A stretch of DNA of 64,000 bases from a virus. Taxonomy: Duplodnaviria; Caudoviricetes. The notes under the pieces are model-generated. The model was not told the DNA's origin, searched no databases, and saw nothing but the letters and a program-made list of their open reading frames with translations. A program made the translations under genes and the position numbers. Location: the IMG/VR virus record IMGVR_UViG_3300021255_002065, positions 64,001-128,000 of that record. One strand, 5' to 3'. Every line of letters begins with the position of its first letter. Position 1 is the first letter of the stretch. Of this stretch, positions 23,621-62,473 are shown piece by piece.

Positions 23621-26176
23621 TTAATAAGTTGGAACATTAAATGGCATATTGAAGCCCTGTGTGTCATTTGAATGCCTCATTCGATCAATGCGCGCTTTAT
23701 TTTCTTGATCAAATCCTTGGTCGATTTTGGTTTTAATCTGAGAACCGATATTTCGTGCTGTTTGATTAATATCGGATGCAAGATCAGAGCCAGCATTAGA
23801 GCTAAGATATTGACCTGTGTCTCGGAATCTTTGCCCAATATTTTGTTGCACAAGACCATTTCCATTGTCAGCTTGTGCAATCTTCATTGTTGCCATATTT
23901 GCTCTGAAATTACTTTCATCTTGATTAGCTCTCTGATTTAATTCATCTCGTGCATTTTGAACACCTTGTGCTGTATTTGACATCATATCTTTAAATGCAT
24001 CCTTAGTACTCTTCTGACCAGCTCCAACTGTAACAAATGTCGTTTTGATTGGTGGTTCTTTACCCTTGTTATTAGGATCCGCTCTCCAATTATCCATCAT
24101 TTGTTTCTCTTCAGGTGTCATTTCAACTGGAACTTCTTCACCCATTTGATTCTGAACAAGTTTCATTTCTACTTTATCACCACGAGTTTCAGATACAAAT
24201 GCTTCCCAAGACTGAATAAAGCCATTTAAAACATTGGAGACAAAGGATGTACACCATATTGTTAGTGAATTTAGACCTATCATCGTTGGTATGAGAAGTT
24301 TAGATTTACCAATAAATCCAACTGCCAATCGTGTCCACATACTATGTCTTTGTTCTAACTTAACACCTGCTTTTTTGTCAGAATTAATTTTAAAACCAAT
24401 CTTCTCACCATTCTCATTTGTTGAAGTTTTCATTACACCACCAGAGAGATCCATTCCGCCTTGTGTGGTTCTCTCTACAGTTCCAAGATTCTGAGTTCCT
24501 GACAATAGATCAACCATGTTACTTGCAAATGTATCCGGTTTGGAAAATGCATCATCGATTTTATTGATTATCATTTGTAAATTTCCCAACAATCGATTTT
24601 CATTAACACCAGCGTACACTTTCGTTTGTAACACAGCCATTAGTGTGTTTGTCGGATTGGTATTTTCACCATTTTGATCCATTCCACGGAAAAAGTTGTC
24701 CAGATTGTTTAAAGCATTTTCTGCTTCTTCTATATCTTTAGAACCATTTACCTGTATTGCTTGATCAATTACGGCATTACAAGTTTCTGCTGCAGAACAA
24801 AATACATCAGCAATGTTCTTCAATGATTTCGCACAAACATTAACAACAGCTGTGGCTGCATTATCATTATTATCCGGCGCTTTCATTCTGCGATATGTTT
24901 TTGTAATAAGATCCAAAATAATCCAGAGCCATGGTAATGATGTAACTGCACTTGTTCCAGGAATATGTCCACCAAGCAAATCATTCATGCCTGCAAATAC
25001 CTTTTGGATCGGTTCAGGTATCGGGAGACCGAAAAGTGTTAATGGTGGTCCGATCACAAATATCTGATCCACAGGAATTGTAGATGTACCATCTTTTGTT
25101 TTTGATAATTCTTGGATAAATTGACCAAGATTGTCAATTTCAGCACCATGCATCTTTAGATTCTTCATAATGTCAAGCCATCTGATATTCGTTGTTTGAT
25201 AAGCGAAGCTGCCTTTTGCACCAACTTCATTATCCATGCTTCTCGTGCCATCCATCACATAATCACCAAGATTGCTGACATTTAACACACTCAGCGACTC
25301 CATCAATCCGATAAATCCCTTTCCTGTGTCCGGAAGGGGGATAACTCCCATGTGCTTTTCAGTAATCTTTCCGATAATAAATTTGGCAGCATCTAATACA
25401 CCTTCTTGGACAACTTCATCACCCGACTCTTGTACGACCATCTCATTTGGTTCTGTATATTTTATAAATGCCGCTTGCTGAACTGTTGGTGCACTATTGG
25501 AATTTGCACTTTCATTTGCAAATGCTTCCAATCCCTCAATCAAATCTGGATGTTCATCGCCAGCCTTTTCAATCGCAGCTTCATTCTTTTGCTCAATTGC
25601 AACAGATGTTTTATCCATAATCCTTCCCATTAATTTGGAAATTCCTTGTGCAATATCATGAATCAATTTTTTTACAAAATCAACGAATTTCTGCCAATTC
25701 GTTTTTGGAACCTCACCATTCTGTTCTTGTTGCTGTTGTTGATTTTCGGCTTCGGATTGATTCTCACTCGAGGCAGGTTGCTGATTTTGTGGTTGTTGAT
25801 TTTCTCCAGCATCAGGCTGTTTTACATCTTGTTTTGGTACATTATTGGCATTGGGTTGTTGTACCACAGCAGGTGGTTGTTTTTGTTCAGCAGATGCATC
25901 AGGTGCACTATTTGCAGAAGGAGCTTCTGGTTGTGGTTGAGGTTTAGGTTGTGGCTGAGGTTGAGGTTGTGGTGTTGGATTCGGCTGAGTTTCACCATCT
26001 TCCTTAAAAATAAATGCATCATGATATGGATCTACTTCATATCCATTTTCAAATAGATACGATTCCATTGTGATTTGTTTATCATAAAACATGATCAATT
26101 TTTCAAGAACATCCATCTCCGTGTAAAAAGTCTGAAGTTCTATATCTTCTTTATATATCACATTTTCCACCTTCAA
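23621..26176 (-). CDS. Putative internal head (ejection) protein, propeptide family
   Basis: Leader TEMDVLEKLIMFYDKQITMESY; Q/P linker; amphipathic NWQKFVDFVKKLI; VVQE/S and VVQE/G sites. Confidence 0.6.
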   Translation of the reverse strand: MKVENVIYKEDIELQTFYTEMDVLEKLIMFYDKQITMESYLFENGYEVDPYHDAFIFKEDGETQPNPTPQPQPQPQPKPQPQPEAPSANSAPDASAEQKQPPAVVQQPNANNVPKQDVKQPDAGENQQPQNQQPASSENQSEAENQQQQQEQNGEVPKTNWQKFVDFVKKLIHDIAQGISKLMGRIMDKTSVAIEQKNEAAIEKAGDEHPDLIEGLEAFANESANSNSAPTVQQAAFIKYTEPNEMVVQESGDEVVQEGVLDAAKFIIGKITEKHMGVIPLPDTGKGFIGLMESLSVLNVSNLGDYVMDGTRSMDNEVGAKGSFAYQTTNIRWLDIMKNLKMHGAEIDNLGQFIQELSKTKDGTSTIPVDQIFVIGPPLTLFGLPIPEPIQKVFAGMNDLLGGHIPGTSAVTSLPWLWIILDLITKTYRRMKAPDNNDNAATAVVNVCAKSLKNIADVFCSAAETCNAVIDQAIQVNGSKDIEEAENALNNLDNFFRGMDQNGENTNPTNTLMAVLQTKVYAGVNENRLLGNLQMIINKIDDAFSKPDTFASNMVDLLSGTQNLGTVERTTQGGMDLSGGVMKTSTNENGEKIGFKINSDKKAGVKLEQRHSMWTRLAVGFIGKSKLLIPTMIGLNSLTIWCTSFVSNVLNGFIQSWEAFVSETRGDKVEMKLVQNQMGEEVPVEMTPEEKQMMDNWRADPNNKGKEPPIKTTFVTVGAGQKSTKDAFKDMMSNTAQGVQNARDELNQRANQDESNFRANMATMKIAQADNGNGLVQQNIGQRFRDTGQYLSSNAGSDLASDINQTARNIGSQIKTKIDQGFDQENKARIDRMRHSNDTQGFNMPFNVPTY

Positions 26177-26181
26177 TCATA

Positions 26182-27948
26182 TTATGTTGCATTAGCAGAA
26201 TTGACACCATTCACAACAGTTTGTATTACATCTCCACCAATACGAATAATGTTTATGATATTATTTACAACCGACATGATTCCTTGACCAACCTTGGTTA
26301 ATACACCTAGAATCTTTTGCAACAAACCTTTGCTTTCTTGGTCTTCTTGTATTCCCATTTCTGCACGAGCTTTTTGTGCAATTCCTTGTGCAACTCGAGC
26401 AGATGTCTGCATTCCAAAAATGGGATTGCTTGGATCATTAAACCAATTAACAAGTTGCTCAGACTTCTGTTTTAATTGGGTCAGTAATGGGTTCATGGTT
26501 TGATCATTCATATCTTTTACGAAACGTTCACATTCTGACATTGCTTGATCTTCTTCCGGTGTAATGTTTGAGACTTGCGTTTGTTGTGGAGTTGCAAATA
26601 ATGCGGATGGCTTCACAAATTTCTCATACCACAAATTCATCACACGAATCGTTTGTTCTGATTCTTTATCTTCAACCAATGTGAAGTTTTGTAAGATATT
26701 CTGCAATGATTGTTTGATATCCGGTTTTGGAGCATTTGGATCTGATTTGGGAATACCTTGTTGAAGCAATTGTATTTTTTTGGAAAGTTCTTGGTCACTC
26801 GATTGACAAGCTTTTTCGATCAATTCATATCTTGGAAGCTGTGTGATTTTATTTTTATCACGAGCATCTTTAATTTTGTTACTAACAAAATCCCATAACT
26901 TTCCAGCACCAATACCTGCAAGCAAACCAACACCTGTTAACACAAGACCGCTTCCACCAAGAGCAGTAGCTCCGGCAACCATACCAGCTTTTGCCGCAGT
27001 AGTCGCAACCTTTTTTGCACCATTTTCTACCATACCAAGGGCAGACCTTTTTGCAAGTTCTGCATCTGACAAATTGTCTTGACCAGTTGCAGAAGCCATG
27101 ACATTTTGTCGTGCAATTTCATTACTTGCTGCAGTTCTTGCACCTTTCGCTCCCATGACAGCACCAAATGCAGTTCCCAATTCTTGATAAATTTCATCAA
27201 ATGAACGGAAATCATGTATGGAATAATCCACCTTTGTTTCTTCTCCAGTTGGCACAGTTGAAGATGGTTGATCAGCTACAGGTGTTTCTGTATCCGTTGT
27301 CGGTGGTTGACCACCACCCTGTGTTCCCTTCTTGGCTTCAATCTTTTGTAGCAATGTATCAATCTCTTGATCTGACATATTGTCGACTATATTCGAAAAT
27401 TCCTGTTTGCTTTCAGCAAGTTTTTTGTCAACAATTTTCTCAATACATTTCGTAATCAAATTTGGAATCCACATAAAAATCTTTTTAACAGTATCAATGA
27501 TTTTTTGTAAGAATCCTGGTTCTTGATTATTAGTATTATTTTCAGCATTTTCGTTGGGTTTATCATCATTTGACACAACGGGCTCTTCTCCAGTTTCAGG
27601 TTGCTGATTTTGTGGCTGCTGATTTTCTCCAGCATCAGGTTGTTTTACATCTTGTTTCAGTGCATTATCACCAGATTGTTGTTGTTGTACCACAGCAGGT
27701 GGTTGTTTTTGTTCATCCTGAGATGGAGCACTATTTCCTACCTCAACCTCAGCATCTGTCTGTCCGTTATCAGTTGTAGATGTATTGTCGGGTGGTGGTG
27801 TTTCATCTTCCATGTAGTAACCCATGTTCTCCATGTAAATTCTCATTGACAATTCTTTCTGATAGTATTCACATAACTGAAGAAGTGATTCTGTATCATA
27901 AAATACCTGCACATCATCAATTTCACAAATTACATTACTTAGATTCAT
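26182..27948 (-). CDS. Putative internal head protein, propeptide family
   Basis: AGGAGG RBS before MNLSNV; leader TESLLQLCEYYQKELSM; amphipathic FLQKIIDTVKKIF; glycine-zipper hydrophobic segment. Confidence 0.6.
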   Translation of the reverse strand: MNLSNVICEIDDVQVFYDTESLLQLCEYYQKELSMRIYMENMGYYMEDETPPPDNTSTTDNGQTDAEVEVGNSAPSQDEQKQPPAVVQQQQSGDNALKQDVKQPDAGENQQPQNQQPETGEEPVVSNDDKPNENAENNTNNQEPGFLQKIIDTVKKIFMWIPNLITKCIEKIVDKKLAESKQEFSNIVDNMSDQEIDTLLQKIEAKKGTQGGGQPPTTDTETPVADQPSSTVPTGEETKVDYSIHDFRSFDEIYQELGTAFGAVMGAKGARTAASNEIARQNVMASATGQDNLSDAELAKRSALGMVENGAKKVATTAAKAGMVAGATALGGSGLVLTGVGLLAGIGAGKLWDFVSNKIKDARDKNKITQLPRYELIEKACQSSDQELSKKIQLLQQGIPKSDPNAPKPDIKQSLQNILQNFTLVEDKESEQTIRVMNLWYEKFVKPSALFATPQQTQVSNITPEEDQAMSECERFVKDMNDQTMNPLLTQLKQKSEQLVNWFNDPSNPIFGMQTSARVAQGIAQKARAEMGIQEDQESKGLLQKILGVLTKVGQGIMSVVNNIINIIRIGGDVIQTVVNGVNSANAT

Positions 27949-27949
27949 G

Positions 27950-28078
27950 TCAATCCTCCTTTTCTTTGATTCCATAATCCAATAAACAATATTCTTTGTA
28001 CAAATAGTCCATTTGACTCATCGCAACATCAATCAATCCTTGTTCTTGTTCATATATGATATTATCAAAATAATTCAA
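27950..28078 (-). CDS. 42-aa mini-ORF consisting only of the propeptide-like module
   Basis: GAAAGGG RBS, TTG start; MNYFDNIIYEQEQGLIDVAMSQMDYLYKEYCLLDYGIKEKED*; fills the intergenic gap. Confidence 0.6.
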   Translation of the reverse strand: MNYFDNIIYEQEQGLIDVAMSQMDYLYKEYCLLDYGIKEKED

Positions 28079-28098
28079 TTTCTTTCGCCCTTTCTGTA

Positions 28099-28857: not shown

Positions 28858-28881
28858 ATTACATCACACCTTTGTTAAAAA

Positions 28882-30369
28882 TTAACCACGTTTTGCTTTT
28901 CTTCTCGCAGATAATGCATCGGCTTTCGCCTGTGCTTTATCCGCAGCTTCTTGCGCTTTTCTTGCTTTTTCTTCCAAGTCTGCTGCTTGTTTTTCCTTAT
29001 GATCAGCTTTACGACGTTTACCATTTCTGATGTCATAATAAGCAGTCGCTTCATCATGTGCTTGATCAAATTTATCACGATACTCTTTACCAAATTCTTT
29101 ACCTGCCATCTTAACAAGTCGCTGAATTTCTTTCTCACTGTAATCACCAGATGCACGAAGTTTTTCTTCATAACTCTGTTGTCCAGCTTTGATCGTATCG
29201 TTTTTACCCTTAGACATCACATGGTCACTTGTACCAAACAACCTCTGTCCTTCAGCACCTTTATGTTTTGCATAATTTGCATCAGCAGCAGTTAATTGAA
29301 TTGCTTGCACTTCTTGATTCATGATTTTTGCCGCATTCATAACAGCTTTCATCGGACCTGTCATTTGACCAAACGCTTGATCAACTGCTGGACCTTTTTC
29401 TGGATCGGAATACAATTGATTCATTGTCTTCTGCAAGTCGGTGAAGGCATTATTCATTTTTCGACACATGTCTCCAGCCATAAAGAAATAAGTTTTCCAA
29501 ATAGAAGGAGGGGATTGCACATTCTGATTCAATGCTTTCATCAAAACTTCTGAGCTCTGATTCAATTGTTGAATCATATTATTTCCCTCTGCGATAATCT
29601 GCTGTGCTGAAAATCCCTTTAACTTCTTTGCAATCTGACTAATTAAACCAGTCAAAGCTTGCATTGCATTTACACTGTCTTTTGACATGTGTGTGGGAAT
29701 GTTTCCTTCTCTGAACCAGATTCGATAGAACTCCTCCAATTTACCAGTATCCACATTTGCTGGTTTTGAAGGTTGTGCGCCGCTTGTTGAATCATCCATT
29801 GGTCCTTTGAACATACCACTGGATTTATTCTGCCAATTTGTCATAATTTGAGAAATGAATTCATCTTCAGATATGCCACTGGATCTGGCTTTTTCAACAA
29901 CTTGTGTCGCCTTATCAACAATTCCCTCTGTTTGTTTACCGGAAAAGAATTCGCCAATCTTTTTGAAGAATCCCATAATTGCATCAAAAATTCTTTGGAA
30001 AATGTTCCTTTTCTGTGCTGGATTACCCCCTGAGGGTTTCATTATTTTTGTTTGAGCAGATGTCGCACTGGCATTTGTAGCACCAGCCTGTGGACTTGGA
30101 ATGGTGCTTCCAGGAGTTGGTTTAATATTTCCTGGAGCATTTGGATTCGGAGCCGGGGCTGCAGTTGGTGCTTGTGTGGGGGCAGGTGCCCCACCACCAG
30201 CCGGTGGTTGTGAACCAGCCGGGGCTGGAGGTGCTGGGTTTTGTGTTGCTTCAGAATAATAAGATTCTAGAAGATTGCATTTTTGAGCATATTCGAGAAT
30301 TGCAATACATGTATCAAATTCACTGGAATATTTTTCCAATTCCAGTTCTCTCATCATAAAATCGGTCAT
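28882..30369 (-). CDS. Putative internal head protein, propeptide family
   Basis: SEFDTCIAILEYAQKCNLLESYYSE/A; Pro/Ala linker; NIFQRIFDAIMGFFKKIGEFF. Confidence 0.6.
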   Translation of the reverse strand: MTDFMMRELELEKYSSEFDTCIAILEYAQKCNLLESYYSEATQNPAPPAPAGSQPPAGGGAPAPTQAPTAAPAPNPNAPGNIKPTPGSTIPSPQAGATNASATSAQTKIMKPSGGNPAQKRNIFQRIFDAIMGFFKKIGEFFSGKQTEGIVDKATQVVEKARSSGISEDEFISQIMTNWQNKSSGMFKGPMDDSTSGAQPSKPANVDTGKLEEFYRIWFREGNIPTHMSKDSVNAMQALTGLISQIAKKLKGFSAQQIIAEGNNMIQQLNQSSEVLMKALNQNVQSPPSIWKTYFFMAGDMCRKMNNAFTDLQKTMNQLYSDPEKGPAVDQAFGQMTGPMKAVMNAAKIMNQEVQAIQLTAADANYAKHKGAEGQRLFGTSDHVMSKGKNDTIKAGQQSYEEKLRASGDYSEKEIQRLVKMAGKEFGKEYRDKFDQAHDEATAYYDIRNGKRRKADHKEKQAADLEEKARKAQEAADKAQAKADALSARRKAKRG

Positions 30370-30387
30370 ATCAATACCTCCTTAAGA

Positions 30388-31983
30388 TCAGTCTTCTGGC
30401 ATCTTCTCACTGTCTCTGAGTTGACCACGTTCATTTCTTACAGCAGTGGAGAATCCAACCGTTCTCTGGTTCTCGATATTACCGCCAGCCTGTTTAATCA
30501 TTTCAATAATAAGCTCGCAACAATGAACAGTGTAATCCAGACCTTCAGATGTCATAGCAACTGCTTCTTTCATTTTTGTCATTGCTTCAGCTAATGCTTT
30601 CACACCACTCATGTATGCACCTTGTGCACGAGGATCAATTTCAGCATCTTTCTTCTGTAATGCCTTTACAATTTTTGCAAGCTGAGAAGTTCCAGAACCA
30701 CTTACTTCATGCTGAAGATTTGTGAGTGTATCATTCATATGGTTCAATGTATCAGAAATTGCATCATACGCCTCAGTCAATTGCTGACCTGTAAAGCTTG
30801 TATGATCATCACTCTTAATGGTTTCTGTCATTTTATTATAGCACTCACGAAGTTTATTAGCTTTCGTCTCTAGAGAACGTGCCCATCCCTGTGCTTGATT
30901 GAATCCAATTGTGTATTTATCACCATGATCATTGACGTGACCACCACTTGAAGTAACTTTATTGTCAGCTCTATCAAGTTTGCCACACCAATCATTCAAA
31001 TCGTCAAGTGCTTTGCTTGCATTATTTAATGCAGAAACAAATTTCTTATTAAGAATCGGAAGTCCTTTAAATTTACCAGTAACAGCTGCATCAACAGCAG
31101 TCTTTGTGAATTTTTCATCAACGACTTCTTTTACTGTCTTTTCTTTCTTGAGTCCATCTGTAGACTTGGCCTGGTTTGCCCAGCTTTCAAAATTACCGTC
31201 TGAAATATTTGCCGGAAGCGAACCGTTACCTCTATTTGAATTGCGGCCTCCACCAGGAAGCTGATGATCGGTTGCTACACGACCTCTACTACCAGAATCA
31301 ACAGATGAACTGCGACCCGTTCCCCCATCGTTTTCTTGTCTTGCACCACCCGGAAGCTGATGACCTACGGACACAGGTCTTCCATTTTTATTACCAGCAA
31401 CAAATGTACTTCCAGCCTTTGGTGATGCCTGTCCAGGTCCAGGAAGCTGACGACTAGTACTGAGTGCAGATCTTGTCGCAGATGACAATGTACTTCCAGA
31501 ACGAATGCTTGAGGTAAATGTCGGAGTACTCCAGGAAGAATTAATTCTGCTTCTAGTTCCAGAACTTGCTCCAGATACAGCTCTTGCGGCAGTGTGTACA
31601 GTATTTCTACGACGAGTCAATCTACGAATCAACCATCTGAAGAAATTGATAATTGCCATAATCAGACGAGGCAGGAATAGCAGAAATCTTGTCAACATTC
31701 TTTCACCAGGCTGTCTTGCAAGTCTTTCATTCGCTTGATCAATTGCACGGTCTGTTTTTACACGATGTTCATACATACGAGCTCTTACTCTTGTCCCAAA
31801 TCCAGGACCATTATTTGTTGTAGCAGCTTCCATTAAGAACTCCTCAGGAATGATAGATTCATCGAAATCGTATTGCTCCAAAATTGTAGAATTCTTAATA
31901 CAATCATTCATTAAATCATAAGCTGTATCCAATTCAGCAGATACGGCATATTCGTTAATAATATCAAACATTGTTTGTGTCAT
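30388..31983 (-). CDS. Putative internal head protein, propeptide family
   Basis: AELDTAYDLMNDCIKNSTILEQY..FLME/A; amphipathic basic helix; three QLPG repeats. Confidence 0.6.
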   Translation of the reverse strand: MTQTMFDIINEYAVSAELDTAYDLMNDCIKNSTILEQYDFDESIIPEEFLMEAATTNNGPGFGTRVRARMYEHRVKTDRAIDQANERLARQPGERMLTRFLLFLPRLIMAIINFFRWLIRRLTRRRNTVHTAARAVSGASSGTRSRINSSWSTPTFTSSIRSGSTLSSATRSALSTSRQLPGPGQASPKAGSTFVAGNKNGRPVSVGHQLPGGARQENDGGTGRSSSVDSGSRGRVATDHQLPGGGRNSNRGNGSLPANISDGNFESWANQAKSTDGLKKEKTVKEVVDEKFTKTAVDAAVTGKFKGLPILNKKFVSALNNASKALDDLNDWCGKLDRADNKVTSSGGHVNDHGDKYTIGFNQAQGWARSLETKANKLRECYNKMTETIKSDDHTSFTGQQLTEAYDAISDTLNHMNDTLTNLQHEVSGSGTSQLAKIVKALQKKDAEIDPRAQGAYMSGVKALAEAMTKMKEAVAMTSEGLDYTVHCCELIIEMIKQAGGNIENQRTVGFSTAVRNERGQLRDSEKMPED

Positions 31984-31997
31984 AATAATCAATCTCC

Positions 31998-32555: not shown

Positions 32556-32557
32556 AC

Positions 32558-34234: not shown

Positions 34235-34272
34235 ATCTTATCAGTCCTTTCTATTAAATTATTTTAAAGGAG

Positions 34273-34758: not shown

Positions 34759-34771
34759 TTGGAATAAGATG

Positions 34772-34791: not shown

Positions 34792-34840
34792 ATCATCTTA
34801 TCCTATATAAAATTCTTGGAGGAATTGATTATGTTAGATA

Positions 34841-37027: not shown

Positions 37028-37028
37028 A

Positions 37029-37637: not shown

Positions 37638-37667
37638 TTGATTGCGTCACCTCCGTACATTTCATAA

Positions 37668-40463: not shown

Positions 40464-40466
40464 TCA

Positions 40467-41309: not shown

Positions 41310-41328
41310 AATGGGTTCTCTCCTTTCT

Positions 41329-48855: not shown

Positions 48856-48871
48856 GATTATAATCTCTCCT

Positions 48872-50667: not shown

Positions 50668-50740
50668 AAACGAGATGTTAACTTTGTCCATATACCTTTT
50701 ATATATGGAGAAAAATTATGTAGTAAAGGAGATTTATCAT

Positions 50741-53700
50741 ATGCAATTAAATGAGATAAAGTATGATGCGAAAAATAATGAGCCAAAACGTGAATTTGCA
50801 TTCAGTCAAGAATTCCCGAATGAGATTGAATTGGCATTAAAAGCATTTGATCGCGTCTTTAAAGAATTGACATCCATCTCCAATGGGAAGATCGAATTCT
50901 CCGAAGAATATGGTGTTGTCAATAACTTGTACAAGTTCCGTTATATTACACCATCTGATGTTGCAACTTACACTTCTAATCTAATTAAGGTATTGAAGAA
51001 TCACATGATCTGTCCGCATGTGACAGATTTACAGAAGTTTTCTGTTGTATGTGCAAAGCAATACGTGGAAGACCATGGCTGTGTTCCAATTGAACATTCT
51101 TCCATCTATGGTTTGTACAATTACACCACTGACAATATGACGCTACGAGATTTGTTGGTTCTTTGTGAAAATGACTTCTATCATACCACGGTTGTTTCTA
51201 GATTTGAAATGCAAGAACGTGTGAAAGTGATGAAGGAAGATTATAAAAAGATTGCCGACATGCATTTCAATACCAATATCATGAAGATTGTGGATGGTTT
51301 ACCGAAACTCATCACACAAACTGATTTCTTGGAATTAACTTATGTGGAACAGAAAGCAGTTCAAACATTCATTGAAGAATTCATTCTGTTTACGATTATG
51401 CTGAATACAATCATCATGAGTAACATGATCTTCTTCTGTGTTCCAAAATCCACATATGATACAAAATTCATTGAAAAGAAAGAGCACGTGGATTCCAACA
51501 CATTATTGGATGATGCCGATATGGACGATGGTGGATTGTATACGGAAGCAGTTGACACATCGAAATATAAACCTGTATACATTGTTCTGATGAGTGGAAA
51601 CGGTGCCATATCAAAAGCGGTACAGAAAACCACACTCAGTTCCATATCACATGCTGGAATTTCATTTGATTCTTCCATGAATCGAATTTATTCATTCGGC
51701 ATGTTCAATAAGAATCGTACCGAAGACGCTCCACGTAAAAATGGATTCCGTATTGATTCTTTCTTTACGGAAAATCACAAAGATGTCACCATGAGTGTAT
51801 ATGCCGGATACATGTCAAATGAAAATTATAACAAAATGAAATCTTTTGTGGAAGATAATTATGTCGGTGATAAAAAGACGGATTATTCATTGGGAACAAT
51901 CTGGAAGCAGTTGTGGCATTCTGACAAAGAATCTCGAAAACCGAAAGACATGGCATTTGTATGTTCCACATTTGTCGATCGTGTATTAAAAGAAGCTGGC
52001 GTAAATGTTACTGGAAAGCACCTACCATCCCCACAAGACTTCGACAGAAGTATGGCAAATGACATGGTGCATTTCGAACGTGTGTTCAATGGAAAACCCG
52101 AACACTTCGATGAACAAGATATGCTGGATCGTGTGAAGAACTTTGCAAAATATAAGAAAACCAGCAACGCAGATGCTGTGGTAACAGAAGCTGTCGATAC
52201 ATCGAAAACAAAACCGATTTATGTGGTATTGACAGAGGGTGTGGAATTTGTATCCGACCAAGTAAAACGTCACACGCGTTCTCGTTATTCCCATTCCGGT
52301 TTGTCATTTGATGATTCCTTGCATCATGTTTATTCATTTGGCTTAATGAATCCCGTGAATAAAGACACAATTGTTCGAAATGGTTTCCGTATGGATGATA
52401 TGTTCTCCGACCATCACAAGGGTATTCGATTCACTGTCTTTGTTGCATTTGTTTCCAATGATAAATGGAATACGATGAAGAAATATGCAGACCATGTGAA
52501 AAATAGTCCTAAGTCTAAATACTCACTTGGTATTATTTGGAGACAATTGTGGAATGATGAAAAACCACATAAGAGTGATACCGCACCTGATCATGAACTA
52601 AAAGAAGTTTGTTCCACCTTTGTCAATAGTATTCTGAAATCTGCGGATATTGATTTGACGAAAAAGGTACTTCCAGCACCTGCTGATTTTGAAGCAAACA
52701 TGCTTGTGAGAATGAATCAATTCAGTCAAGTGTTCTCTGGCACATCTGATCAATTCAAGATGGATGAATTCCGTTCTCGTGTAAAAGACTTTGCAAAACG
52801 TGAAGAAACCAAGAAACTTGCAAAAGGTGATGTCATTACAGAATGCTGCTTATTAAAGACCAATCGTTCTCGTCACTTCAACAAGATTCCTTTTGATATC
52901 AATATGAGAAATATTGTATTGCAAGATATGCATCCAAAGTTCAAAGATACGGTTGCAGCAATTGAATATATTACAAAAGACACACGTTCCCCATTTGCAC
53001 AACTCATTTATCGTTATGGCAGTCCTTCCAAGGTATTAGATGGAATGGATGGTATGATGATTTGTCGTATGTTTATCAACGATCCATGTGCAAGATGCGG
53101 ATGTTATGATGAATATGAAAATCAATTACATCAAGCCGACTTCCATACGGATGTATGTTGGTTAGATCGTATTGCGTTTGGTAACAATTTCCAAGATGGT
53201 AATTACAGAACCGATGCATTAGGATTGGAACATCGTCATCCGATTAAACAAACATTGGAAACGTTGTATCACATGTTCAGTGAAACAAGACTGAAAACGA
53301 AAGAAGAATTGTGTAATCACATTCTCAAGATTGCACATGTGATGAAAGGCATCATTGACTGTTATGGAAGTAACGGATTATACAATTGGGAACTGGTACG
53401 TGATATCTTGACTGTATTGGGTGAAATCATGACAAGAAGCATGATCAAACTATATGACAGACATATGGCTTTGGTTGTATCTGATAACATGGATGATGTG
53501 GATGCTCCTGGATATATGTATACAGAAGCATTTGTATTGGAAGCAGATGAACATGAACCAAAGGTTGTGGAAACTGGTAATGACGGAAAACCAACTGGCG
53601 GTGGTGGAAATGGTCAAGTGACATCTGCACAAGCTGAACAAAAGAAAAGCTGGTGCAAACGGATGCTTGATGAATTCACCAAATGGGTACAAGGTACCTT

Positions 53701-54700
53701 GACGAAAGTTGCTGAAAAATTCAAAGGTAATTATAAAGCACAAGTGGGTTATGTTGCTGCAAATAAGACAATGAATGAACAGATCAAAACAGATTTGGGA
53801 AATGGTTCATTCAAACCAAAAGTTGAAGATTGGCCGAAGTATAATATTCCCATCAAAGAGATTGGACAGAAGAAATTATCCGAGGTCATCAAACCTTGGT
53901 TGGATGGTACGGCAAAAGAACCGCTTACAGCACTTAGTGTGAAGAAAGCATTCTATCCAGAAGCAGTTGCAGCTGTTATTACAGAATCTTATGTATTGGA
54001 ATCTGGTCAAACAACACAAATTCAAGCACCACAAGGACAACCCGCAAATGTTGGAAAGGCAGCACTTGCGGCAAAAAATGTGAAAGCAAATTTAAATGCA
54101 GCATTACAATCCAAAATAGATGCTCCAAAGAAGTTTGAACCAGACAGCGAAAATGGTAAGAAATTACAAAATTTCTTCTTGTTTGGTAAACCGGATGCAT
54201 CCAATGCTAACTATTCCAATGAATTAACTCCGGAATTATGGCAAGATACCATTAATAATATTCTGAATTGCGACAAAGCAGTTTCCGTTGGTATCAAAGA
54301 AATTACTGCTGATATCAAATCCACAAGTGATGAATTGAAATCGAAATTGGCTGCCTTAAAAGAAGCAAATGCAAACGCCGGTGAAGCACAAGGTGATGCT
54401 GCAAATGCAAATAACACGGGTAATGCAGATATTACTCGCTTGGAAGATCTGATTAAAATTGTTACCGAAATTTCAAATGAATATAGTATTGGATTTGCTC
54501 ACAGTATGCAAGATGCATTCTTTGTGACTTCTTACAAATTATATTCCGATATTATCAAAAAATACAAAGATGCTTCTGGTAGCTTCGAGCAGCAACAACC
54601 AAATGCCAATGCACAACCGGCACAAAAACCAGCATCTGCAAACGCAGCACCAGCAGCTCCTGCTCAGCCGGCCGCAAATGCACAAGCTCAACCCGCATAA
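50741..54700 (+). CDS. Virion polyprotein with two permuted papain-like (NlpC/P60, YiiX/YaeF-type) domains
   Basis: Two repeats starting TEAVDTSK.KP.Y.VL with SH[AS]G[IL]SFD...YSLG...CSTFV...P.P.DF (His before Cys); C-terminal amphipathic helix region. Confidence 0.75.
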   Translation: MQLNEIKYDAKNNEPKREFAFSQEFPNEIELALKAFDRVFKELTSISNGKIEFSEEYGVVNNLYKFRYITPSDVATYTSNLIKVLKNHMICPHVTDLQKFSVVCAKQYVEDHGCVPIEHSSIYGLYNYTTDNMTLRDLLVLCENDFYHTTVVSRFEMQERVKVMKEDYKKIADMHFNTNIMKIVDGLPKLITQTDFLELTYVEQKAVQTFIEEFILFTIMLNTIIMSNMIFFCVPKSTYDTKFIEKKEHVDSNTLLDDADMDDGGLYTEAVDTSKYKPVYIVLMSGNGAISKAVQKTTLSSISHAGISFDSSMNRIYSFGMFNKNRTEDAPRKNGFRIDSFFTENHKDVTMSVYAGYMSNENYNKMKSFVEDNYVGDKKTDYSLGTIWKQLWHSDKESRKPKDMAFVCSTFVDRVLKEAGVNVTGKHLPSPQDFDRSMANDMVHFERVFNGKPEHFDEQDMLDRVKNFAKYKKTSNADAVVTEAVDTSKTKPIYVVLTEGVEFVSDQVKRHTRSRYSHSGLSFDDSLHHVYSFGLMNPVNKDTIVRNGFRMDDMFSDHHKGIRFTVFVAFVSNDKWNTMKKYADHVKNSPKSKYSLGIIWRQLWNDEKPHKSDTAPDHELKEVCSTFVNSILKSADIDLTKKVLPAPADFEANMLVRMNQFSQVFSGTSDQFKMDEFRSRVKDFAKREETKKLAKGDVITECCLLKTNRSRHFNKIPFDINMRNIVLQDMHPKFKDTVAAIEYITKDTRSPFAQLIYRYGSPSKVLDGMDGMMICRMFINDPCARCGCYDEYENQLHQADFHTDVCWLDRIAFGNNFQDGNYRTDALGLEHRHPIKQTLETLYHMFSETRLKTKEELCNHILKIAHVMKGIIDCYGSNGLYNWELVRDILTVLGEIMTRSMIKLYDRHMALVVSDNMDDVDAPGYMYTEAFVLEADEHEPKVVETGNDGKPTGGGGNGQVTSAQAEQKKSWCKRMLDEFTKWVQGTLTKVAEKFKGNYKAQVGYVAANKTMNEQIKTDLGNGSFKPKVEDWPKYNIPIKEIGQKKLSEVIKPWLDGTAKEPLTALSVKKAFYPEAVAAVITESYVLESGQTTQIQAPQGQPANVGKAALAAKNVKANLNAALQSKIDAPKKFEPDSENGKKLQNFFLFGKPDASNANYSNELTPELWQDTINNILNCDKAVSVGIKEITADIKSTSDELKSKLAALKEANANAGEAQGDAANANNTGNADITRLEDLIKIVTEISNEYSIGFAHSMQDAFFVTSYKLYSDIIKKYKDASGSFEQQQPNANAQPAQKPASANAAPAAPAQPAANAQAQPA

Positions 54701-54721
54701 TGAATGAAAGGAGAATTCTCC

Positions 54722-56914: not shown

Positions 56915-56924
56915 GGTGACAAAT

Positions 56925-58622
56925 ATGACATTGAATGATTATATTCTCGATCAAGTAATGGAAGCAAAAGAAAATGAGTTGGAAACAACACAAAAGGTGT
57001 TAGAATATCTTGTGACAGAAAGTATGAAAGAATGGGAATATCTTGATCACTGTATTACCTATCACAAAGATCCAACACTCGTTCAAGAGTCATTTTTAAA
57101 GAAAATACACACAGGTGTGAAAGATACTGCGGGAGGCATCCGCAGTATCATCACAAGACTTCGTGCATTGACTCGTCGAAATCTTGTGGTATTGAAAACA
57201 TTGTTTTCACATGTAAAAGATGTTACAGAAGGATTCAGGGGTAAATTCCGCAAGAGTGGTGCTAAGAAAAGCGCGTCTCAAATTGCACATGAAAATCTTC
57301 GTAAGAAATTGGATCCTGAGAAGAAGATGGCAGAATCACAAGCACGTGTAAAAGTACCATATGAAGGAGACATCAAACAAGATGAGATTGAATTAATTAA
57401 TTCCGCAATCTTAATTAAAGAATTTGATGATGATAACAATTTCGAAGTGGATTTGATGGGTGTAAACTATGTGAAGAATGATCGTGGTAAAGTAAGAGCT
57501 GTTTCTGATAAAGGAGAAGGAGTTCCTTCATTGGCATCTCTATTCGTTTATACAAACTCCATGATTTACTTCATCAAACATCCAAATGAAATGGAAACAT
57601 TATGTGAATTGATTACTCTGGGATTCAAGATCACAAATGGTGAACAAGAAATTGCACCAGCAGAATATGCCAAGAAAGTTAATAAATTGACCAGTGCTGC
57701 ATTCAATAAAGCAAATGGTATTGCTGCTGGTGGTACAAGATTAACCATGAAAGAACTAACGACATTCCAATCCAAATTGAACAATTTGGAAGAACAATTG
57801 GACTTTGCGCAAAATGGTAATAACAAATTGAATGATGTGGATACAAGTGTCATTCAAGCTTTGAATAATTTGGTTCACATTACAGAACATTTTCAGTTTG
57901 GATTGTCTTCCTTATCAAATGCAATGCAAAAAGTACATCTGATTGATTTGAAATACATGAACTCTATCACTGACAGAAATGTGTTGTCAAAGTTTGTATA
58001 TGATTGCATTCAGAATGGTATTCCACCCAAGTATATCGCATACAATACATGGTTAATCGCAAATGAAAGCATTCGTGGAAGTGCATCCAGATACAAACCC
58101 GTCGGTGGTCAAACACGTTGTGTATTCTTCCCGAATGACAATAAAAAGGAAATTCTTAAAATTGCCACATCTGGTATTGGTATCACATCTAATAAGAATG
58201 AAATTCGTTTCTCAGAATTCTTAAAACGTTCCAAGGAACAAGAGATGATTGATATTTCCGCACTTGTTACAAATACTTATGCCGAAGATGCCATATTGGC
58301 AATGGAACGTGTTGTCGATAGAGTTGGAAAACATCCTGACTTACAGATTCTGAATGACATGAAATCAAAATATAAAGCATTTACTGATCGACATCCTGAA
58401 TTGAGATTGGTTGTTTCCGACTTTAATGATGGCAATGTCATGTGGTCGAGTGATAAAGATCGATGGATCTGTATCGACTATGGTCTTGGTAAACGTAATA
58501 CGCAGAAACAAGAAGTTGTTGACAAGAAGGCAAATAAAGCCATCAAGCAATATCATAAACAGAACGAAACAAATGATGATGGAGGAGAACCAAAGTCATT
58601 GAAAAATGTTGCAGAAGAATAA
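56925..58622 (+). CDS. Propeptide-bearing protein with C-terminal protein-kinase-like domain
   Basis: GGQTRCVF, LKIA, NKNE, MERV, DFNDGN, IDYG; N-terminal leader ending LVQE/S. Confidence 0.75.
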   Translation: MTLNDYILDQVMEAKENELETTQKVLEYLVTESMKEWEYLDHCITYHKDPTLVQESFLKKIHTGVKDTAGGIRSIITRLRALTRRNLVVLKTLFSHVKDVTEGFRGKFRKSGAKKSASQIAHENLRKKLDPEKKMAESQARVKVPYEGDIKQDEIELINSAILIKEFDDDNNFEVDLMGVNYVKNDRGKVRAVSDKGEGVPSLASLFVYTNSMIYFIKHPNEMETLCELITLGFKITNGEQEIAPAEYAKKVNKLTSAAFNKANGIAAGGTRLTMKELTTFQSKLNNLEEQLDFAQNGNNKLNDVDTSVIQALNNLVHITEHFQFGLSSLSNAMQKVHLIDLKYMNSITDRNVLSKFVYDCIQNGIPPKYIAYNTWLIANESIRGSASRYKPVGGQTRCVFFPNDNKKEILKIATSGIGITSNKNEIRFSEFLKRSKEQEMIDISALVTNTYAEDAILAMERVVDRVGKHPDLQILNDMKSKYKAFTDRHPELRLVVSDFNDGNVMWSSDKDRWICIDYGLGKRNTQKQEVVDKKANKAIKQYHKQNETNDDGGEPKSLKNVAEE

Positions 58623-58633
58623 GAGGTGATACT

Positions 58634-60247
58634 ATGGAAGAATTAGAATATTTCTGGGAGTGTATGGTGGAATCCAAACAGAATGTGTTTGATGCAATCG
58701 TTGCAGAAAATGAAAAGGAACATATGTTGGTGGAACAATATCTGATGAAACAAGCAGAAGGTAGAATCACATTGGAAAGTTCTGATATGGGAATTCGTCT
58801 ATGGCAATTACTTAAGAAAACGAGTAAAGCCACAAGTGGTATTGCCGATCATGCAGTCAACTTGTTAAAGGGTATTTTCCATGTAAAAAATGGAAGTAAA
58901 AAACCAACAAAAACTCCAAATGCAATTGCACAACAAGTTGTACCAAGTTCCAAACTTCCAAAAGCACAACAGGAAGTGGAGAAGAATTTGAAAACTCCAT
59001 TCAAAGGAAAAGAGAATGTGGTATTAAGTGCAACTCCTATTTTTATTAAGGAAATTACACAAGATGAAGGGTTATACATCGGATTATTCGGTGTTAACTA
59101 TATCAAGAACGAAAAGGGACAGTTGGAACATGTTTCCAACTCCCATGGTATCAAGGGATTGGAAGACAATACCATCATCTACAAGAACATGGTGTATTAT
59201 ATCAAACATCCAGAAGCATTTGAAAATCTTGCAAGGATTGTGGAACAAGCCGGTGATTTGGTAGATGGTGGAAATGTTGACCAAGCAAAGCTTCGTGAAG
59301 CCATCAAAAAGACGGTTGCGAAGAGCCATGCTCCCGGTCGTGAATTCAATGCTGGTGGTACGAAATTAACCATGAAGGAATTGACAACATTCGCTGCTAA
59401 AGTGAATCAGTTAACAAATGCAATGGACAAATTCCAGAATGGTAATAATCACTTGAATGGATTTGATTCTGAAACAATTACGGCAATGAACCAATTGGTT
59501 CGTGAATTGGAAACTTGTCAACATGGTATCAATGGTTTGGCAAATGAGGTTGGTAAGCTGTACATGATCAAAGCACAATATGTGAACTCTATCACGGATA
59601 AAAATGACTTGGCAAAGTTTGTGGAAATGTGTATTGATGCTGGTGTACCACCAAAGTTTGTTGCATACAATACATGGCTGATTGCAAATGAAGAAATCCG
59701 TGGTGATAAAGTAGACTTTAATAAAGTGCCAATGGGACAAACCAGAATGGTGCTCTTCCCGAAGGATAAAAAGATCATCACCAAGATTGCGTTTAGTGGT
59801 CGTGGATTAACTTCTAACAAGAACGAAGTAAGAATGAGTGAATTTATCCAGCGGAGTAAAGAAGAGGATATGATCAAGATTGCTGCTCCGATTGTTGGAA
59901 AATATGGTAAAGACTGTGCAGTTATTGATATGGAACGTGTTGTCGATAAAGTTGGGAAACACCCCAATCCAAAAATGTTAAATCAGGTAAAGGGGCAGTT
60001 CATAGACTTTGTACAACGTCATCCTGAATTGAGATTGGTGGTTACCGACTTTAATGATGGAAATATCATGTGGTCGAGCGATCGTGATTGTTGGGTATGT
60101 ATTGACTATGGCTGTGGTCAACGTGATAACATTTCTGAAGAGAAACTGCAACAACGTGCTGAGAAGAAACAAGCGGCATACAAAACTCGCACTGGTAAAG
60201 ATAAAATATTAGATGTTACGGTAGGTGATGATAATGACAACGATTGA
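58634..60247 (+). CDS. Paralogous propeptide-bearing protein-kinase-like protein
   Basis: MGQTRMVL, TKIA, NKNE, MERV, DFNDGN, IDYG; leader ending ITLE/S. Confidence 0.75.
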   Translation: MEELEYFWECMVESKQNVFDAIVAENEKEHMLVEQYLMKQAEGRITLESSDMGIRLWQLLKKTSKATSGIADHAVNLLKGIFHVKNGSKKPTKTPNAIAQQVVPSSKLPKAQQEVEKNLKTPFKGKENVVLSATPIFIKEITQDEGLYIGLFGVNYIKNEKGQLEHVSNSHGIKGLEDNTIIYKNMVYYIKHPEAFENLARIVEQAGDLVDGGNVDQAKLREAIKKTVAKSHAPGREFNAGGTKLTMKELTTFAAKVNQLTNAMDKFQNGNNHLNGFDSETITAMNQLVRELETCQHGINGLANEVGKLYMIKAQYVNSITDKNDLAKFVEMCIDAGVPPKFVAYNTWLIANEEIRGDKVDFNKVPMGQTRMVLFPKDKKIITKIAFSGRGLTSNKNEVRMSEFIQRSKEEDMIKIAAPIVGKYGKDCAVIDMERVVDKVGKHPNPKMLNQVKGQFIDFVQRHPELRLVVTDFNDGNIMWSSDRDCWVCIDYGCGQRDNISEEKLQQRAEKKQAAYKTRTGKDKILDVTVGDDNDND

Positions 60248-61472
60248 TGAAATTGTACAAGAACAAGAGATGTCCACAGTTATTGCATTATTGGAATATT
60301 ATCAAAAACAACTGGACTTATCCGATTATGAAACGGACGTGTATGTGGAGCACGTCCGTAATATTGGTATGACAACTCCTTCCGAAAAAGCCAGAGAAGA
60401 ACAGGAGAAAGAAGAAGTAACAAATACTTCAAACAAGAAAGAATCTGTTGATGATAAACAAAGTCTTGGTACTAAAATCAAATCGGGAATTTCCAAATTG
60501 ATCAATATGATTATCAATGGATTTAAAAAGATTATTTCAAAGATAATGTCGATTGGAAAATCGGAAACAAAAGTCACAGATATGATTGTGAACAATCCAG
60601 ACGCTTGTAAAGAAGCTGGCGATAAATTACAACAGATAGCAAAGTCAAAGGTGACGCAGGAAGCCGCAACATTAACAGACGTTATCGCTCATAATAGATT
60701 TAAAGATCTCAATAAATTAAGCCCTGCTGAAAAAGCCGATCTCGTCCGTTATTATGATAAACAGCAAGCTGCCAAGAAAGCAGCAGAAGATGCAGCAAAA
60801 GATGCAGCTGAGCGAAAAGAAGCGATATCTGATGCAGTGAATTCAATAAAGAAATTTGTTCCATTTGGTTTATTAAGAAATATTGGTATTGGTGCAGTGA
60901 TTGCATTATGTGCAACTTTATTCATTCTGCTTTATAAAAGGAAAACCAATTATCAATTACCAAGTGTAACAGATATTGGTCGTTCTTGTGTAGAGCTGAA
61001 TTCACAATTACAAAAGTCCATGAATGGAAATGGACTCAAAAATGTCACAATCAATCCAAAAACAAAGGACTACATGACACGTGTTGCAAACTGGAATAAG
61101 AGATATACTAAGAATGAACCAGAATTTGAATCAAAGCATTCCGAATTCGAATTGACCAGAGAACAAGAAAAAATATTTGTTGATGCAGTTTATCTTGCAG
61201 CATCTGCAAAGAATGATCGATTCATCGGTGTGCTACAAGATTCTATTGGGTTATTAAAACAATTCAATGCTGTCATTAAAAAGAGTAATGGGATTGTGGT
61301 AAACCATTTGGTTGATGTTTCCAAACAATATGCAAATTTCATCATTGGAATTAATAAAGCAATCACAGTAGGTTCTGATCTAATCAAAAATATGGGATTA
61401 TCCTTACAACAAATTCGAGGATACCAAAATCAGAAAGAACGTGATTACAAACCTTCGAAAGCAATTATTTAA
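60234..61472 (+). CDS. Putative internal head protein, propeptide family, with a transmembrane-like helix
   Basis: QEMSTVIALLEYYQKQLDLSDY; amphipathic helix; IGIGAVIALCATLFILLY. Confidence 0.6.
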   Translation: MTTIDEIVQEQEMSTVIALLEYYQKQLDLSDYETDVYVEHVRNIGMTTPSEKAREEQEKEEVTNTSNKKESVDDKQSLGTKIKSGISKLINMIINGFKKIISKIMSIGKSETKVTDMIVNNPDACKEAGDKLQQIAKSKVTQEAATLTDVIAHNRFKDLNKLSPAEKADLVRYYDKQQAAKKAAEDAAKDAAERKEAISDAVNSIKKFVPFGLLRNIGIGAVIALCATLFILLYKRKTNYQLPSVTDIGRSCVELNSQLQKSMNGNGLKNVTINPKTKDYMTRVANWNKRYTKNEPEFESKHSEFELTREQEKIFVDAVYLAASAKNDRFIGVLQDSIGLLKQFNAVIKKSNGIVVNHLVDVSKQYANFIIGINKAITVGSDLIKNMGLSLQQIRGYQNQKERDYKPSKAII

Positions 61473-61486
61473 GGAAGTGATAATCA

Positions 61487-62473
61487 ATGATTGATATTGA
61501 GCAAGTAGTAATGGAATCAGAAATTGATGTATTATTGGAACAAACTTGTTTATTACAAAAAGAATCCATGTTATCAGATTATTATGTTGAAGCTGATGAA
61601 GTTACTGCCAATGATGAATCACCAAAGAATGACAATATCTTGAAAAAGATATGGGGTGGAATTGTTAGGATTATCCAGGCAATTGGCAATTGGTTTAAAA
61701 AGTTCTTTGATCGTTTCAAGAAGAAACGAAGCGATGGAAACTTTACACCGAAATATATCAAACTAGATGAGAATGGGAATTTCAAATATTGCATGTTTCC
61801 AAAATACAATGTAACTGATTCTACATTACCAGAACATCAACAAATCGAGAGTCAATTCCATTTACTATTGTCCTTTCTGTTTGAAGATGTCATGACATTC
61901 AATTATACAAAACATAAATTGTTTGATAATTTCTTAACTGCATTAGAGATGTATAAGAAGAATCATGAAAAACACGTGAAAGAAATCGCTGGTAAAAAAT
62001 TGAATATGACCAATCCAATTGGTAAAGAACGTGATTTGATTAAGAGATACACCAAACATATCTCAAAAGATTTCAAAATGGCAGGAAACTATCAAGCTGG
62101 TAATGAGAAACTGAACAAATGGGGAAATTATGCAATCAACCAAGGTGCGGAACATGCCATGATTGAAATCAAGAGTTTGGATGAAATCAAATTGGCTGAT
62201 CAACATATCATGGGTGCAATTAATGAAGCAAATGCTTGTTATAATGATTTAAGAAGTGCTCTGGGAATGGGTGAAAATCAAGCACGACCTCAACATTACC
62301 TGTTATCCAAAGATATTGCAAATGATGTATTACAAGTATTAAATAAGATGCTTGAATATATCAAAGACTTGACAAAGATGTATGAAATGACACTTGGTCA
62401 AGTTCGTATTGATTTAATCAACATGATCGAATATCAGAAACATCATAAACAAAACAAGAAAACTCAAAAATGA
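61487..62473 (+). CDS. Putative internal head protein, propeptide family
   Basis: ESEIDVLLEQTCLLQKESMLSDYYVE/A; NILKKIWGGIVRIIQAIGNWFKKFF. Confidence 0.6.
   Translation: MIDIEQVVMESEIDVLLEQTCLLQKESMLSDYYVEADEVTANDESPKNDNILKKIWGGIVRIIQAIGNWFKKFFDRFKKKRSDGNFTPKYIKLDENGNFKYCMFPKYNVTDSTLPEHQQIESQFHLLLSFLFEDVMTFNYTKHKLFDNFLTALEMYKKNHEKHVKEIAGKKLNMTNPIGKERDLIKRYTKHISKDFKMAGNYQAGNEKLNKWGNYAINQGAEHAMIEIKSLDEIKLADQHIMGAINEANACYNDLRSALGMGENQARPQHYLLSKDIANDVLQVLNKMLEYIKDLTKMYEMTLGQVRIDLINMIEYQKHHKQNKKTQK

Follow-up and report, generated by a model that had tools for sequence, protein, structure and literature searches.

A bipartite N-terminal module, probably a head-targeting signal, shared by otherwise different proteins of an uncultured jumbo phage

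The so-called capsid targeting sequence (CTS) of phage T4 is a propeptide of 10-19 residues carried by IPI, IPII, IPIII and Alt, which targets these proteins to the core, is removed by gp21 (PMC9026906) and is able to carry foreign proteins (PMC9026906, PMC5694885), according to work by Mullaney & Black 1996 as reviewed in PMC9026906 and PMC7411985. In giant phages with phiKZ-type head proteases, the selection of dozens of internal or ejected proteins for packaging is an open question: the known propeptides comprise 20-254 residues, are cut several times and are suspected of prohead targeting, and no shared leader or consensus targeting signal for them is described in these accounts (PMC5694885, PMC7411985, PMC10052503). 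The structural and biochemical knowledge of the phiKZ-like system includes (i) the internal head proteins of family PF12699, namely gp93-95, gp162 and gp163 of phiKZ and gp53 and gp54 of SPN3US, processed by the S80 proteases gp175/gp245 (PMC5694885, PMC10052503, PMC11297242); (ii) the 111-residue propeptide of SPN3US gp47, proposed to target the protein into the prohead (PMC7411985); and (iii) the cryo-EM analysis of phiKZ, in which residues 14-84 of gp93 and 19-134 of gp162 line the inner capsid surface, gp175 cleavage parting these N-terminal regions from the helix-rich domains, which are believed to make up the inner body (PMC11297242). The present analysis concerns a stretch of 64,000 nucleotides (hereafter the window) of an uncultured tailed jumbo phage of ~295 kb, bases 64001-128000 of a 148 kb contig from IMG/VR (record IMGVR_UViG_3300021255_002065) estimated to be 55% complete, in which ten proteins of largely different sequence begin with a related acidic leader, followed by a candidate Glu-type cleavage site and a basic amphipathic helix. 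The literature search found no published description of this leader family.

The first-pass annotation of the window had listed the leader at the start of eleven open reading frames (ORFs) and once inside a further protein. Aligned by eye, the eleven N-termini are suggestive, with a pairwise identity of only about 24%, and in leave-one-out comparisons inside the window, a test biased by the choice of the set, 6 of the 11 rank first and 5 do not (E-values from 3e-4 to 0.15). The evidence that carries the family comes from profile searches of its relatives, comprising 30 related loci, each extending 10 kb to either side of the capsid gene. Trained on the window's 11 leaders only, a profile matched 45 ORFs in these loci ahead of the first reversed decoy (E = 0.25), all of them N-terminally and on the head-gene strand, the bodies behind being mostly unlike the window's proteins. 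A first iterated model grew C-terminally into K-rich, low-complexity sequence and gave a decoy 42 bits; with a model fixed at 48 columns in its place, the iterated search discloses 77 true matches before the first decoy. This 48-column profile scores the ten window leaders of Table 1 at 21.6-43.9 bits (domain scores; E 6e-12 to 4e-5), and its scan of the phage's own genome returns exactly these ten and one gene outside the window, the next match having E = 3.5. The hidden Markov model scan of genome and relatives proposed in the first pass as a check yields a significant alignment, and ten of the eleven listed leaders are borne out. The eleventh, a mini-ORF, does not survive, nor does the internal copy claimed in the 784-aa protein, where residues 302-432 were matched only by the over-extended model whose decoys reached 42 bits.

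At the scale of 1.84 billion cluster representatives, a 60-leader profile retrieves 491 proteins at E <= 0.001, nearly all of them at residues 1-14, and 15 at E <= 1e-10. Among the best 150 of these matches, 147 fall within the first ~20 residues; of the remaining three, two are long repeat proteins and one is an ORF whose start is probably misassigned. The leader consensus reads roughly ..E-I-L-x-S-I-D-x-I-D....E-S-E-x-x-V-L-x-x-L...Y-x-K-x-x-x-I-x-E-x-Y; one Lys is present in at least 90% of the sequences of every leader alignment and invariant in five out of six, with Glu residues conserved as well. The leader family is real and highly significant. The idea of a chance or compositional resemblance among acidic helical N-termini could appeal to the weak leave-one-out ranks and to the low identity, but it leaves a negligible probability against the 45 and 77 matches that precede the first decoy, the position of the database matches and the conserved Lys and Glu residues, and it is excluded by the decoy-controlled searches together with the search of 1.84e9 proteins. 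At the DNA level, the window leaders share only 9-14-nucleotide matches (E >= 0.039); this lack of significant nucleotide similarity rules out a DNA-level repeat as the cause of their likeness and places the conservation at the protein level.

The segment that ends at the Glu site comprises, counted from the first residue, a median of 57 residues (range 34-67) and has a median net charge of -11. The AlphaFold2 model of the protein encoded at 61487-62473, computed from a 54-row alignment, comprises a helix at residues 4-42 (predicted local distance difference test, pLDDT, 94-98 over residues 1-30), a short loop and a second long helix at residues 50-82 (pLDDT 88-96), with a predicted TM-score of 0.37 that makes the mutual placement of the two helices uncertain. 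The leader is accordingly predicted to be a long acidic helix. The claim that it usually ends at an xxE/[ASG] site (the slash marking the candidate cut) stands and can be sharpened: within 32 residues of the leader core, the motif [FIVLMYW]-[QM]-E occurs in 171 of 208 members, compared with 3-5% of background windows, with preferences for I at P4, F/I/Y at P3, Q/M at P2 and A/G/S at P1', i.e. I-[FIY]-[QM]-E/[AGS]. Many members display a second such site 4-6 residues further on. The lineage of the window itself has a shorter leader and a less strict site, as in YYVE/A, YYSE/A, YYME/D, FLME/A, IFQE/G and LVQE/S.

Beyond the site, and after a linker of variable length, lies the basic amphipathic helix, a median of 28 residues downstream, ~25 residues long, with a net charge of about +4 and the consensus K-E-S-I-I-K-R-I-L-M-F-I-P-R-L-I-K-K. 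This element, too, had been proposed in the first pass and is borne out: of the 11 leader proteins in the genome, a helix-only profile selects 8, at 8.9-30.8 bits, and no protein besides, five of the eight lying outside its training set, with the best shuffled decoy at 5.0 bits. The motif h-[IVL]-P-[RNK]-h is found in 84 of 171 members versus 4 of 111 other proteins, and the hydrophobic moment has a median of 0.69, with 57.5% of the members exceeding the background 95th percentile. The conserved unit is a bipartite N-terminal module, and the proposed architecture of tag, Glu-type site, linker, basic helix and varied body holds.

The window leader genes are packed among structural genes of like orientation, the intervals between them measuring 3-24 nucleotides. 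The order protease-portal-scaffold-capsid-h342-h325-h319-h280 is fixed across the 30 loci, and core head genes are present in 16-30 of them versus only 2-3 for each window leader ORF; in the corresponding regions of the relatives, non-homologous ORFs start with the same kind of sequence. Leader genes fill at least eight slots around or between the conserved head genes, with 0-4 copies per slot, and are never found between portal, scaffold and capsid. Five relatives that are 96-100% complete carry 10, 4, 6, 7 and 1 leader copies, most near the head module and some far from it. The leader-gene set is accessory and positionally fluid.

Several ORFs of the window touch on the module without belonging to the family. 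The unsupported mini-ORF lies directly upstream of the leader gene 26182-27948, in another frame, resembles a bodiless leader (..YLYKEYCLLDY..) and could be a remnant of cassette exchange. The 784-aa protein begins with ...ESIFQE/S at residues 10-15, that is, the site motif without the leader helix; two ECG[ND]GCG repeats lie within its first 70 residues, and around residue 420 there is a basic hydrophobic helix. In addition, a 1341-aa protein (50675-54700, + strand) leads the + strand array whose end is formed by four leader genes; it comprises a ClpP/crotonase-like stretch at residues 292-445 (phrog_1128, E 4e-9), and its residues ~930-1030 resemble the site-plus-basic-helix arrangement at a level that is not significant (E 0.48).

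The predicted prohead protease is encoded in the same cluster. The gene 40467-41309 fits Peptidase S80, the phiKZ gp175 type, by profile and by a conserved His/Ser/His set: H93, S160 and H194 are invariant in an alignment of 9 sequences that includes Listeria phage LPJP1 and g079 of Yersinia phage phiR1-37, an annotated head maturation protease. These two phages provide its closest deposited relatives, at 26% identity. The capsid protein has no tblastn match among 50,697 deposited phage records, a typical leader-family member has none among GenBank phages, and the head region has no megablast match. Because the capsid lacks a deposited match and the nearest protease relatives stand at 26% identity, the phage is, judged by its sequence, a deep uncultured branch of jumbo phages using a phiKZ-type head protease; related phages span 258-295 kb at 96-100% completeness.

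This prohead protease is the presumed enzyme that cuts after the leaders, and the distribution of the site motif agrees with such a role. A hydrophobic-[Q/M]-Glu motif is kept, in all relatives inspected, at the N-termini of four core head-module proteins: (i) S-W-F-Q-E/Q in the capsid protein; (ii) V-M-E/A in the scaffold-like protein, with [VI]ME/A in every distinct sequence displayed (9-12); (iii) W-[LF]-Q-E/A in the 41329-42522 family; and (iv) C-F-[IV]-Q-E/A in the protease itself. In six further conserved families of the neighbourhood, including the portal, the motif shows no conservation. The case for one protease acting at one type of site on shell, core and cargo is circumstantial but coherent. 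The motifs of the core head proteins (34841-42522, with homologues in loci L002-L031) are, in their own right, candidate sites of maturation, where a cut would take off no more than about 6-25 residues, compared with capsid and portal propeptides of more than 100 residues in phiKZ-like phages. Published S80 sites read S/A/G-x-E in phiKZ and A-x-E in SPN3US (PMC10052503); the bulky P3 residue brings the candidate site described here closer to the style of T4 gp21.

The module sits in the head-gene cluster, and its site motif recurs N-terminally on the capsid protein, the scaffold-like protein and the protease; the acidic helix is read as a head-targeting propeptide that would be removed by the S80 protease at the Glu site, leaving the basic helix on the mature protein; a probability of roughly 60% is assigned to this reading. 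According to this scheme, the acidic segment would bind the assembling prohead, either at the core/scaffold or at the inner face of the shell, enclosing whatever is fused behind it; the prohead protease would then cut after the Glu, as it probably does at the same motif on the capsid, scaffold-like and protease proteins; and the mature protein would be freed, with the basic helix now at its N-terminus or close to it. Prohead binding, cleavage, presence in virions and any delivery into the host, as in the modular protein-delivery system imagined in the first pass, are inferences from the sequence.

Several observations weigh against the head-targeting reading. The bulky hydrophobic P3 of the candidate site is unlike the published S80 sites (PMC10052503), and the site is degenerate in the window's own lineage. 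Six loci (L013, L022, L023, L028, L030 and L031) are free of leader genes over the 10 kb on either side of the capsid gene, and the 96% complete genome G005 holds a single leader copy genome-wide, which together indicate that the tag is dispensable for head assembly. No relation between the leader and the scaffold-like protein is detected by hhalign, and leader identity within a genome (23.8%) equals that between genomes (23.9%; permutation p = 0.5), with no signal of leader co-evolution or within-genome homogenisation. Comparison of the N-module with the PDB by sequence and by fold returned only repeat-protein or helical noise. Finally, all family members come from metagenomes.

The module is best read as resembling a long, two-part version of the T4 CTS in a phage with a phiKZ-type protease. 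As in T4, an N-terminal tag is common to otherwise different proteins, with all ten window leaders starting at residues 1-4, and ends in a hydrophobic-x-Glu site, here a candidate site only; enzymes appear to be among the clients in both systems, Alt in T4 and a predicted kinase-like fold here, and the genes are accessory in both. Besides these similarities, important differences are apparent. The T4 sequence comprises 10-19 residues, a length well exceeded by the 34-67 residues (median 57) of the present tag, which is instead predicted to be a long acidic helix without sequence similarity to that of T4; the proteases differ, gp21 in T4 versus a Pfam S80 enzyme here; and a second conserved element, the basic amphipathic helix that would stay on the mature part, is found only here.

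Compared to the internal head proteins of phiKZ, to which the first-pass annotation had also likened the family, part of the resemblance stands. Both systems display a protease of the same Pfam family; phiKZ-like internal head proteins are cut at x-x-Glu, and here likewise a variable head-module set carries candidate x-x-Glu sites; and in the phiKZ internal-protein sequences inspected a basic amphipathic helix comes after an S-x-E site, the same order as in the leader family. On the other hand, P3 is S/A/G in phiKZ and hydrophobic here, and the published phiKZ-like propeptides are heterogeneous, in contrast to the shared leader described here, behind which the bodies are mostly mutually unrelated. 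Homology is not supported: PF12699 scores peak at 21 bits, in a relative, with 11.8 bits for the window (61634-61723), below the cut-off of 27, and the window leader proteins have no match to this family at E <= 1; of 114 leader-family members, 2 have PF12699 matches with E-values of about 1e-4; hhalign gives 6% probability for the leader family versus the phiKZ internal proteins; and the leader profile finds nothing in phiKZ, LPJP1 and phiR1-37 apart from one 15.4-bit match in a 112-residue open frame of phiKZ. The module is not a PF12699 member, and the link to the phiKZ internal proteins is best regarded as a functional analogy. All three sub-threshold PF12699 matches in leader proteins fall on the post-leader basic helix only, at most a hint of a common origin of that helix.

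The phiKZ cryo-EM results also bear on an unlikely alternative, in which the leader would bind the inner capsid lattice and remain there after cleavage as cement, the body being released into an inner-body-like mass, so that one shared leader would mean one shared set of lattice sites. The shell-lining segments of gp93 and gp162, parted from the remainder by gp175 (PMC11297242), the presence of a protease of the same Pfam family in the window and the three sub-threshold PF12699 matches point in this direction. However, the segments of phiKZ form extended arms that include a short helix-loop-helix, compared with the single 39-residue helix predicted here; the absence of the leader profile from phiKZ, LPJP1 and phiR1-37 and the 6% hhalign value separate the two families; and relatives with 0-1 leader genes keep the same capsid genes, so that the leader cannot be an essential cement.

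The bodies behind the leader are diverse, with lengths from about 200 to 850 aa. Once the module is removed, BLAST sorts 183 bodies into 95 clusters, of which 61 are singletons, and among the 16 clusters with at least three members, 2 of 120 profile-profile pairs are related (hhalign 93% and 81%) and 118 are not; the body-cluster alignments are shallow, and remote homology may have escaped. The description of the bodies as non-homologous therefore applies to most pairs but not to all of them: the proteins of 56916-58622 and 58634-60247 are full-length paralogues at 40% identity, as is that of genome positions 11765-13417, and the first ~220 residues are common to the proteins encoded at 23621 and 26182. 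Among 114 members, Pfam finds hardly any domain.

One body family, that of the three full-length paralogues, has a predicted kinase-like fold. Its AlphaFold2 model (58634-60247; mean pLDDT 68.5) comprises helices at residues 2-40 and 49-85, followed by disorder to residue 132, and the best Foldseek matches listed are mostly protein-kinase-like chains (RIO, Bud32, COQ8A, Lpg2603, OspG), with probabilities up to 0.99 and E-values of only about 5e-3 and weaker. The profile of the family finds no kinase among PDB sequences. In 43 of 44 homologues, down to 43% identity, the leader-like N-terminus, the Q-E site and the basic helix are retained; no leaderless homologue that would prove shuffling occurs among the 44, the exception, P0189 (352 aa), being much shorter than the others. 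Effector functions of the bodies are conjectural, one family being kinase-like and most bodies having no recognisable domain.

This diversity is the touchstone for a quite improbable explanation by which all these proteins would form one fast-evolving paralogous structural family, the N-module acting as an oligomerisation or co-assembly domain and the bodies being diverged relatives, with no delivery system involved. Variable paralogue families of head proteins are known in phiKZ-like phages (PMC5694885), the majority of bodies are without a Pfam domain, remote homology links a few of the body clusters as noted above, and ESM Atlas searches lead two window bodies to the same three viral clusters, with scores of 0.78-0.79 that lie below noise level. 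Against it stand the 118 of 120 unrelated profile pairs, the wide range of body lengths and the kinase-like fold seen in one family and not in others; moreover, oligomerisation leaves unexplained why the Glu-site motif is shared with the N-termini of the capsid, scaffold-like and protease proteins.

The retained basic helix invites an elaboration of the head-targeting reading that is tentative and on balance doubtful: the module might be a load-and-arm device, in which the acidic helix docks the cargo and neutralises the basic helix until the S80 cut at I-F-Q-E/ unmasks this helix on every cargo, to act in DNA binding or in crossing the host envelope at ejection, with the portable loading signal serving, in jumbo phages with phiKZ-type proteases, clients of at least 491 clusters. 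A parallel exists in adenovirus, where the viral protease removes an N-terminal propeptide from precursor protein VI inside the capsid and the mature protein starts with an amphipathic helix. Adenovirus infects eukaryotes and is unrelated in both protease and sequence; it offers only an analogy for a possible role of the retained helix.

The same charge arrangement could suggest a role outside the virion, with the module directing proteins elsewhere, e.g. to the cell membrane via the basic helix, or with the acidic pro-segment masking a membrane-active helix until some protease removes it, like the pro-peptides of cationic peptides. The high hydrophobic moment and the +4 helix beside a -11 pro-segment would suit such a function, as would a P3 preference unlike published S80 sites (PMC10052503). 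It is nevertheless very unlikely in view of genes that lie within the head-gene cluster, share its strand and are separated by short gaps, a site motif that recurs on head proteins, and leaders that are acidic and have no signal-peptide-like hydrophobic N-terminus.

For giant phages with phiKZ-type head proteases, the leader family provides a sequence-defined candidate signal with a predicted cut site and hundreds of natural fusions to different bodies. If the head-targeting reading is true, the packaged proteome of a large uncultured clade would be predictable from sequence alone, and a T4-CTS-like handle for loading proteins into large capsids would be at hand. The concept of tagging is known from the T4 CTS; what is new is a ~50-residue helical tag with an I-F-Q-E/[AGS] end, its coupling to a conserved basic helix, an extra feature without a described counterpart in T4, its occurrence in a phiKZ-type-protease clade and its at least 491 client clusters.

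Table 1. Leader genes, unsupported candidates and head-module genes. Coordinates refer to the window unless stated; iE, independent E-value; the slash marks the candidate cut; helices and sites are predictions.
Feature	Coordinates	Strand	Length	Leader residues (DNA)	Leader score	Candidate Glu site	Basic helix residues (DNA); helix-profile score	Remarks
Leader protein	23621-26176	-	851 aa	1-47 (26036-26176)	43.9 bits, iE 3e-12	IFKE/D, residue 59	weak, ~161-176; only 3.2 bits	long P/Q-rich linker
Leader protein	26182-27948	-	588 aa from Met at 27948	1-45 (27814-27948)	39.3 bits, iE 8e-11	YYME/D, residue 47	154-175 (27424-27489); 17.8 bits, outside helix training set	
Leader protein	28882-30369	-	495 aa	1-43 (30241-30369)	38.4 bits, iE 1.5e-10	YYSE/A, residue 40	122-145 (29935-30006); 17.7 bits	Pro/Ala-rich linker
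Leader protein	30388-31983	-	531 aa from Met at 31983	1-43 (31855-31983)	39.1 bits, iE 8.9e-11	FLME/A, residue 52	94-116 (31636-31704), with LPRLI motif; 18.9 bits	
Leader protein	43801-44871	-	356 aa	1-39 (44755-44871)	26.7 bits, iE 7e-7	YTME/AA, leader end	39-64 (44680-44757), immediately after; 21.8 bits, but in helix training set	22 nucleotides away from RNA-polymerase-beta-like gene
Leader protein	44875-46011	-	378 aa	2-44 (45880-46011)	36.0 bits, iE 8.5e-10	YYME/E and IFQE/G (residue 45)	64-85 (45757-45822); 16.8 bits, but in helix training set	
Leader protein	56925-58622	+	565 aa	4-43 (56925-57053)	21.7 bits, iE 2.5e-5	LVQE/S, residue 55	Arg-rich helix after site	predicted kinase-like body
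Leader protein	58634-60247	+	537 aa	1-39 (58634-58750)	26.5 bits, iE 7.7e-7	ITLE/S, after leader	basic helix (IRLWQLLKK...) after site	predicted kinase-like body
Leader protein	60234-61472	+	412 aa	1-37 (60234-60344)	32.5 bits, iE 1.1e-8	VYVE/H, residue 39	84-106 (60483-60551); weak, 8.9 bits	charged linker; body a singleton in BLAST clustering
Leader protein	61487-62473	+	328 aa	1-40 (61487-61606)	32.2 bits	YYVE/A, residue 35	49-75 (61631-61711); 30.8 bits	body with only 2 close homologues in 5.8 billion proteins
Extra leader gene outside window	genome 11765-13417							found by 48-column profile
Leader-like mini-ORF	27979-28078	-			7.3 bits, E 0.76			statistically unsupported
Protein with claimed internal leader	46501-48855	-	784 aa		no match with leader-only 48-column profile			
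Major capsid protein	34841-37027	-						phrog_20655, major head protein, E 5e-10; in 30/30 related loci
Acidic scaffold-like protein	37029-37637	-						between portal and capsid genes; in 30/30 related loci
Portal-sized protein	37668-40463	-						
Predicted prohead (head maturation) protease	40467-41309	-						phrog_3014, phrog_207; Pfam Peptidase_S80 (PF20034) 33.1 bits, cut-off 23.4
RNA-polymerase-beta-like gene	43041-43778	-						phrog_3233, E 9e-44

The head genes of the relatives display further rearrangements. The portal genes L006:4672-9339, L007:5633-9343 and L017:5514-9350 encode proteins of 1236-1555 aa, compared with 931 aa in the window, due to big insertions near residue ~520-530 of the window portal, and in L017 near ~90-105, which could represent an intein or an inserted domain. 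In the 767-aa capsid proteins L017:10001-12304 and L021:9974-12277, the counterpart of residues ~283-339 of the window capsid is gone from its usual place and is found twice at the C-terminus, which looks like a relocated and duplicated insertion domain. In L023, a - strand gene block of at least 5.5 kb (12185-17679) sits between the capsid gene and the conserved h342, and a second - strand block (1371-5586) upstream of the protease replaces the usual RNAPb-h425-h413 genes.

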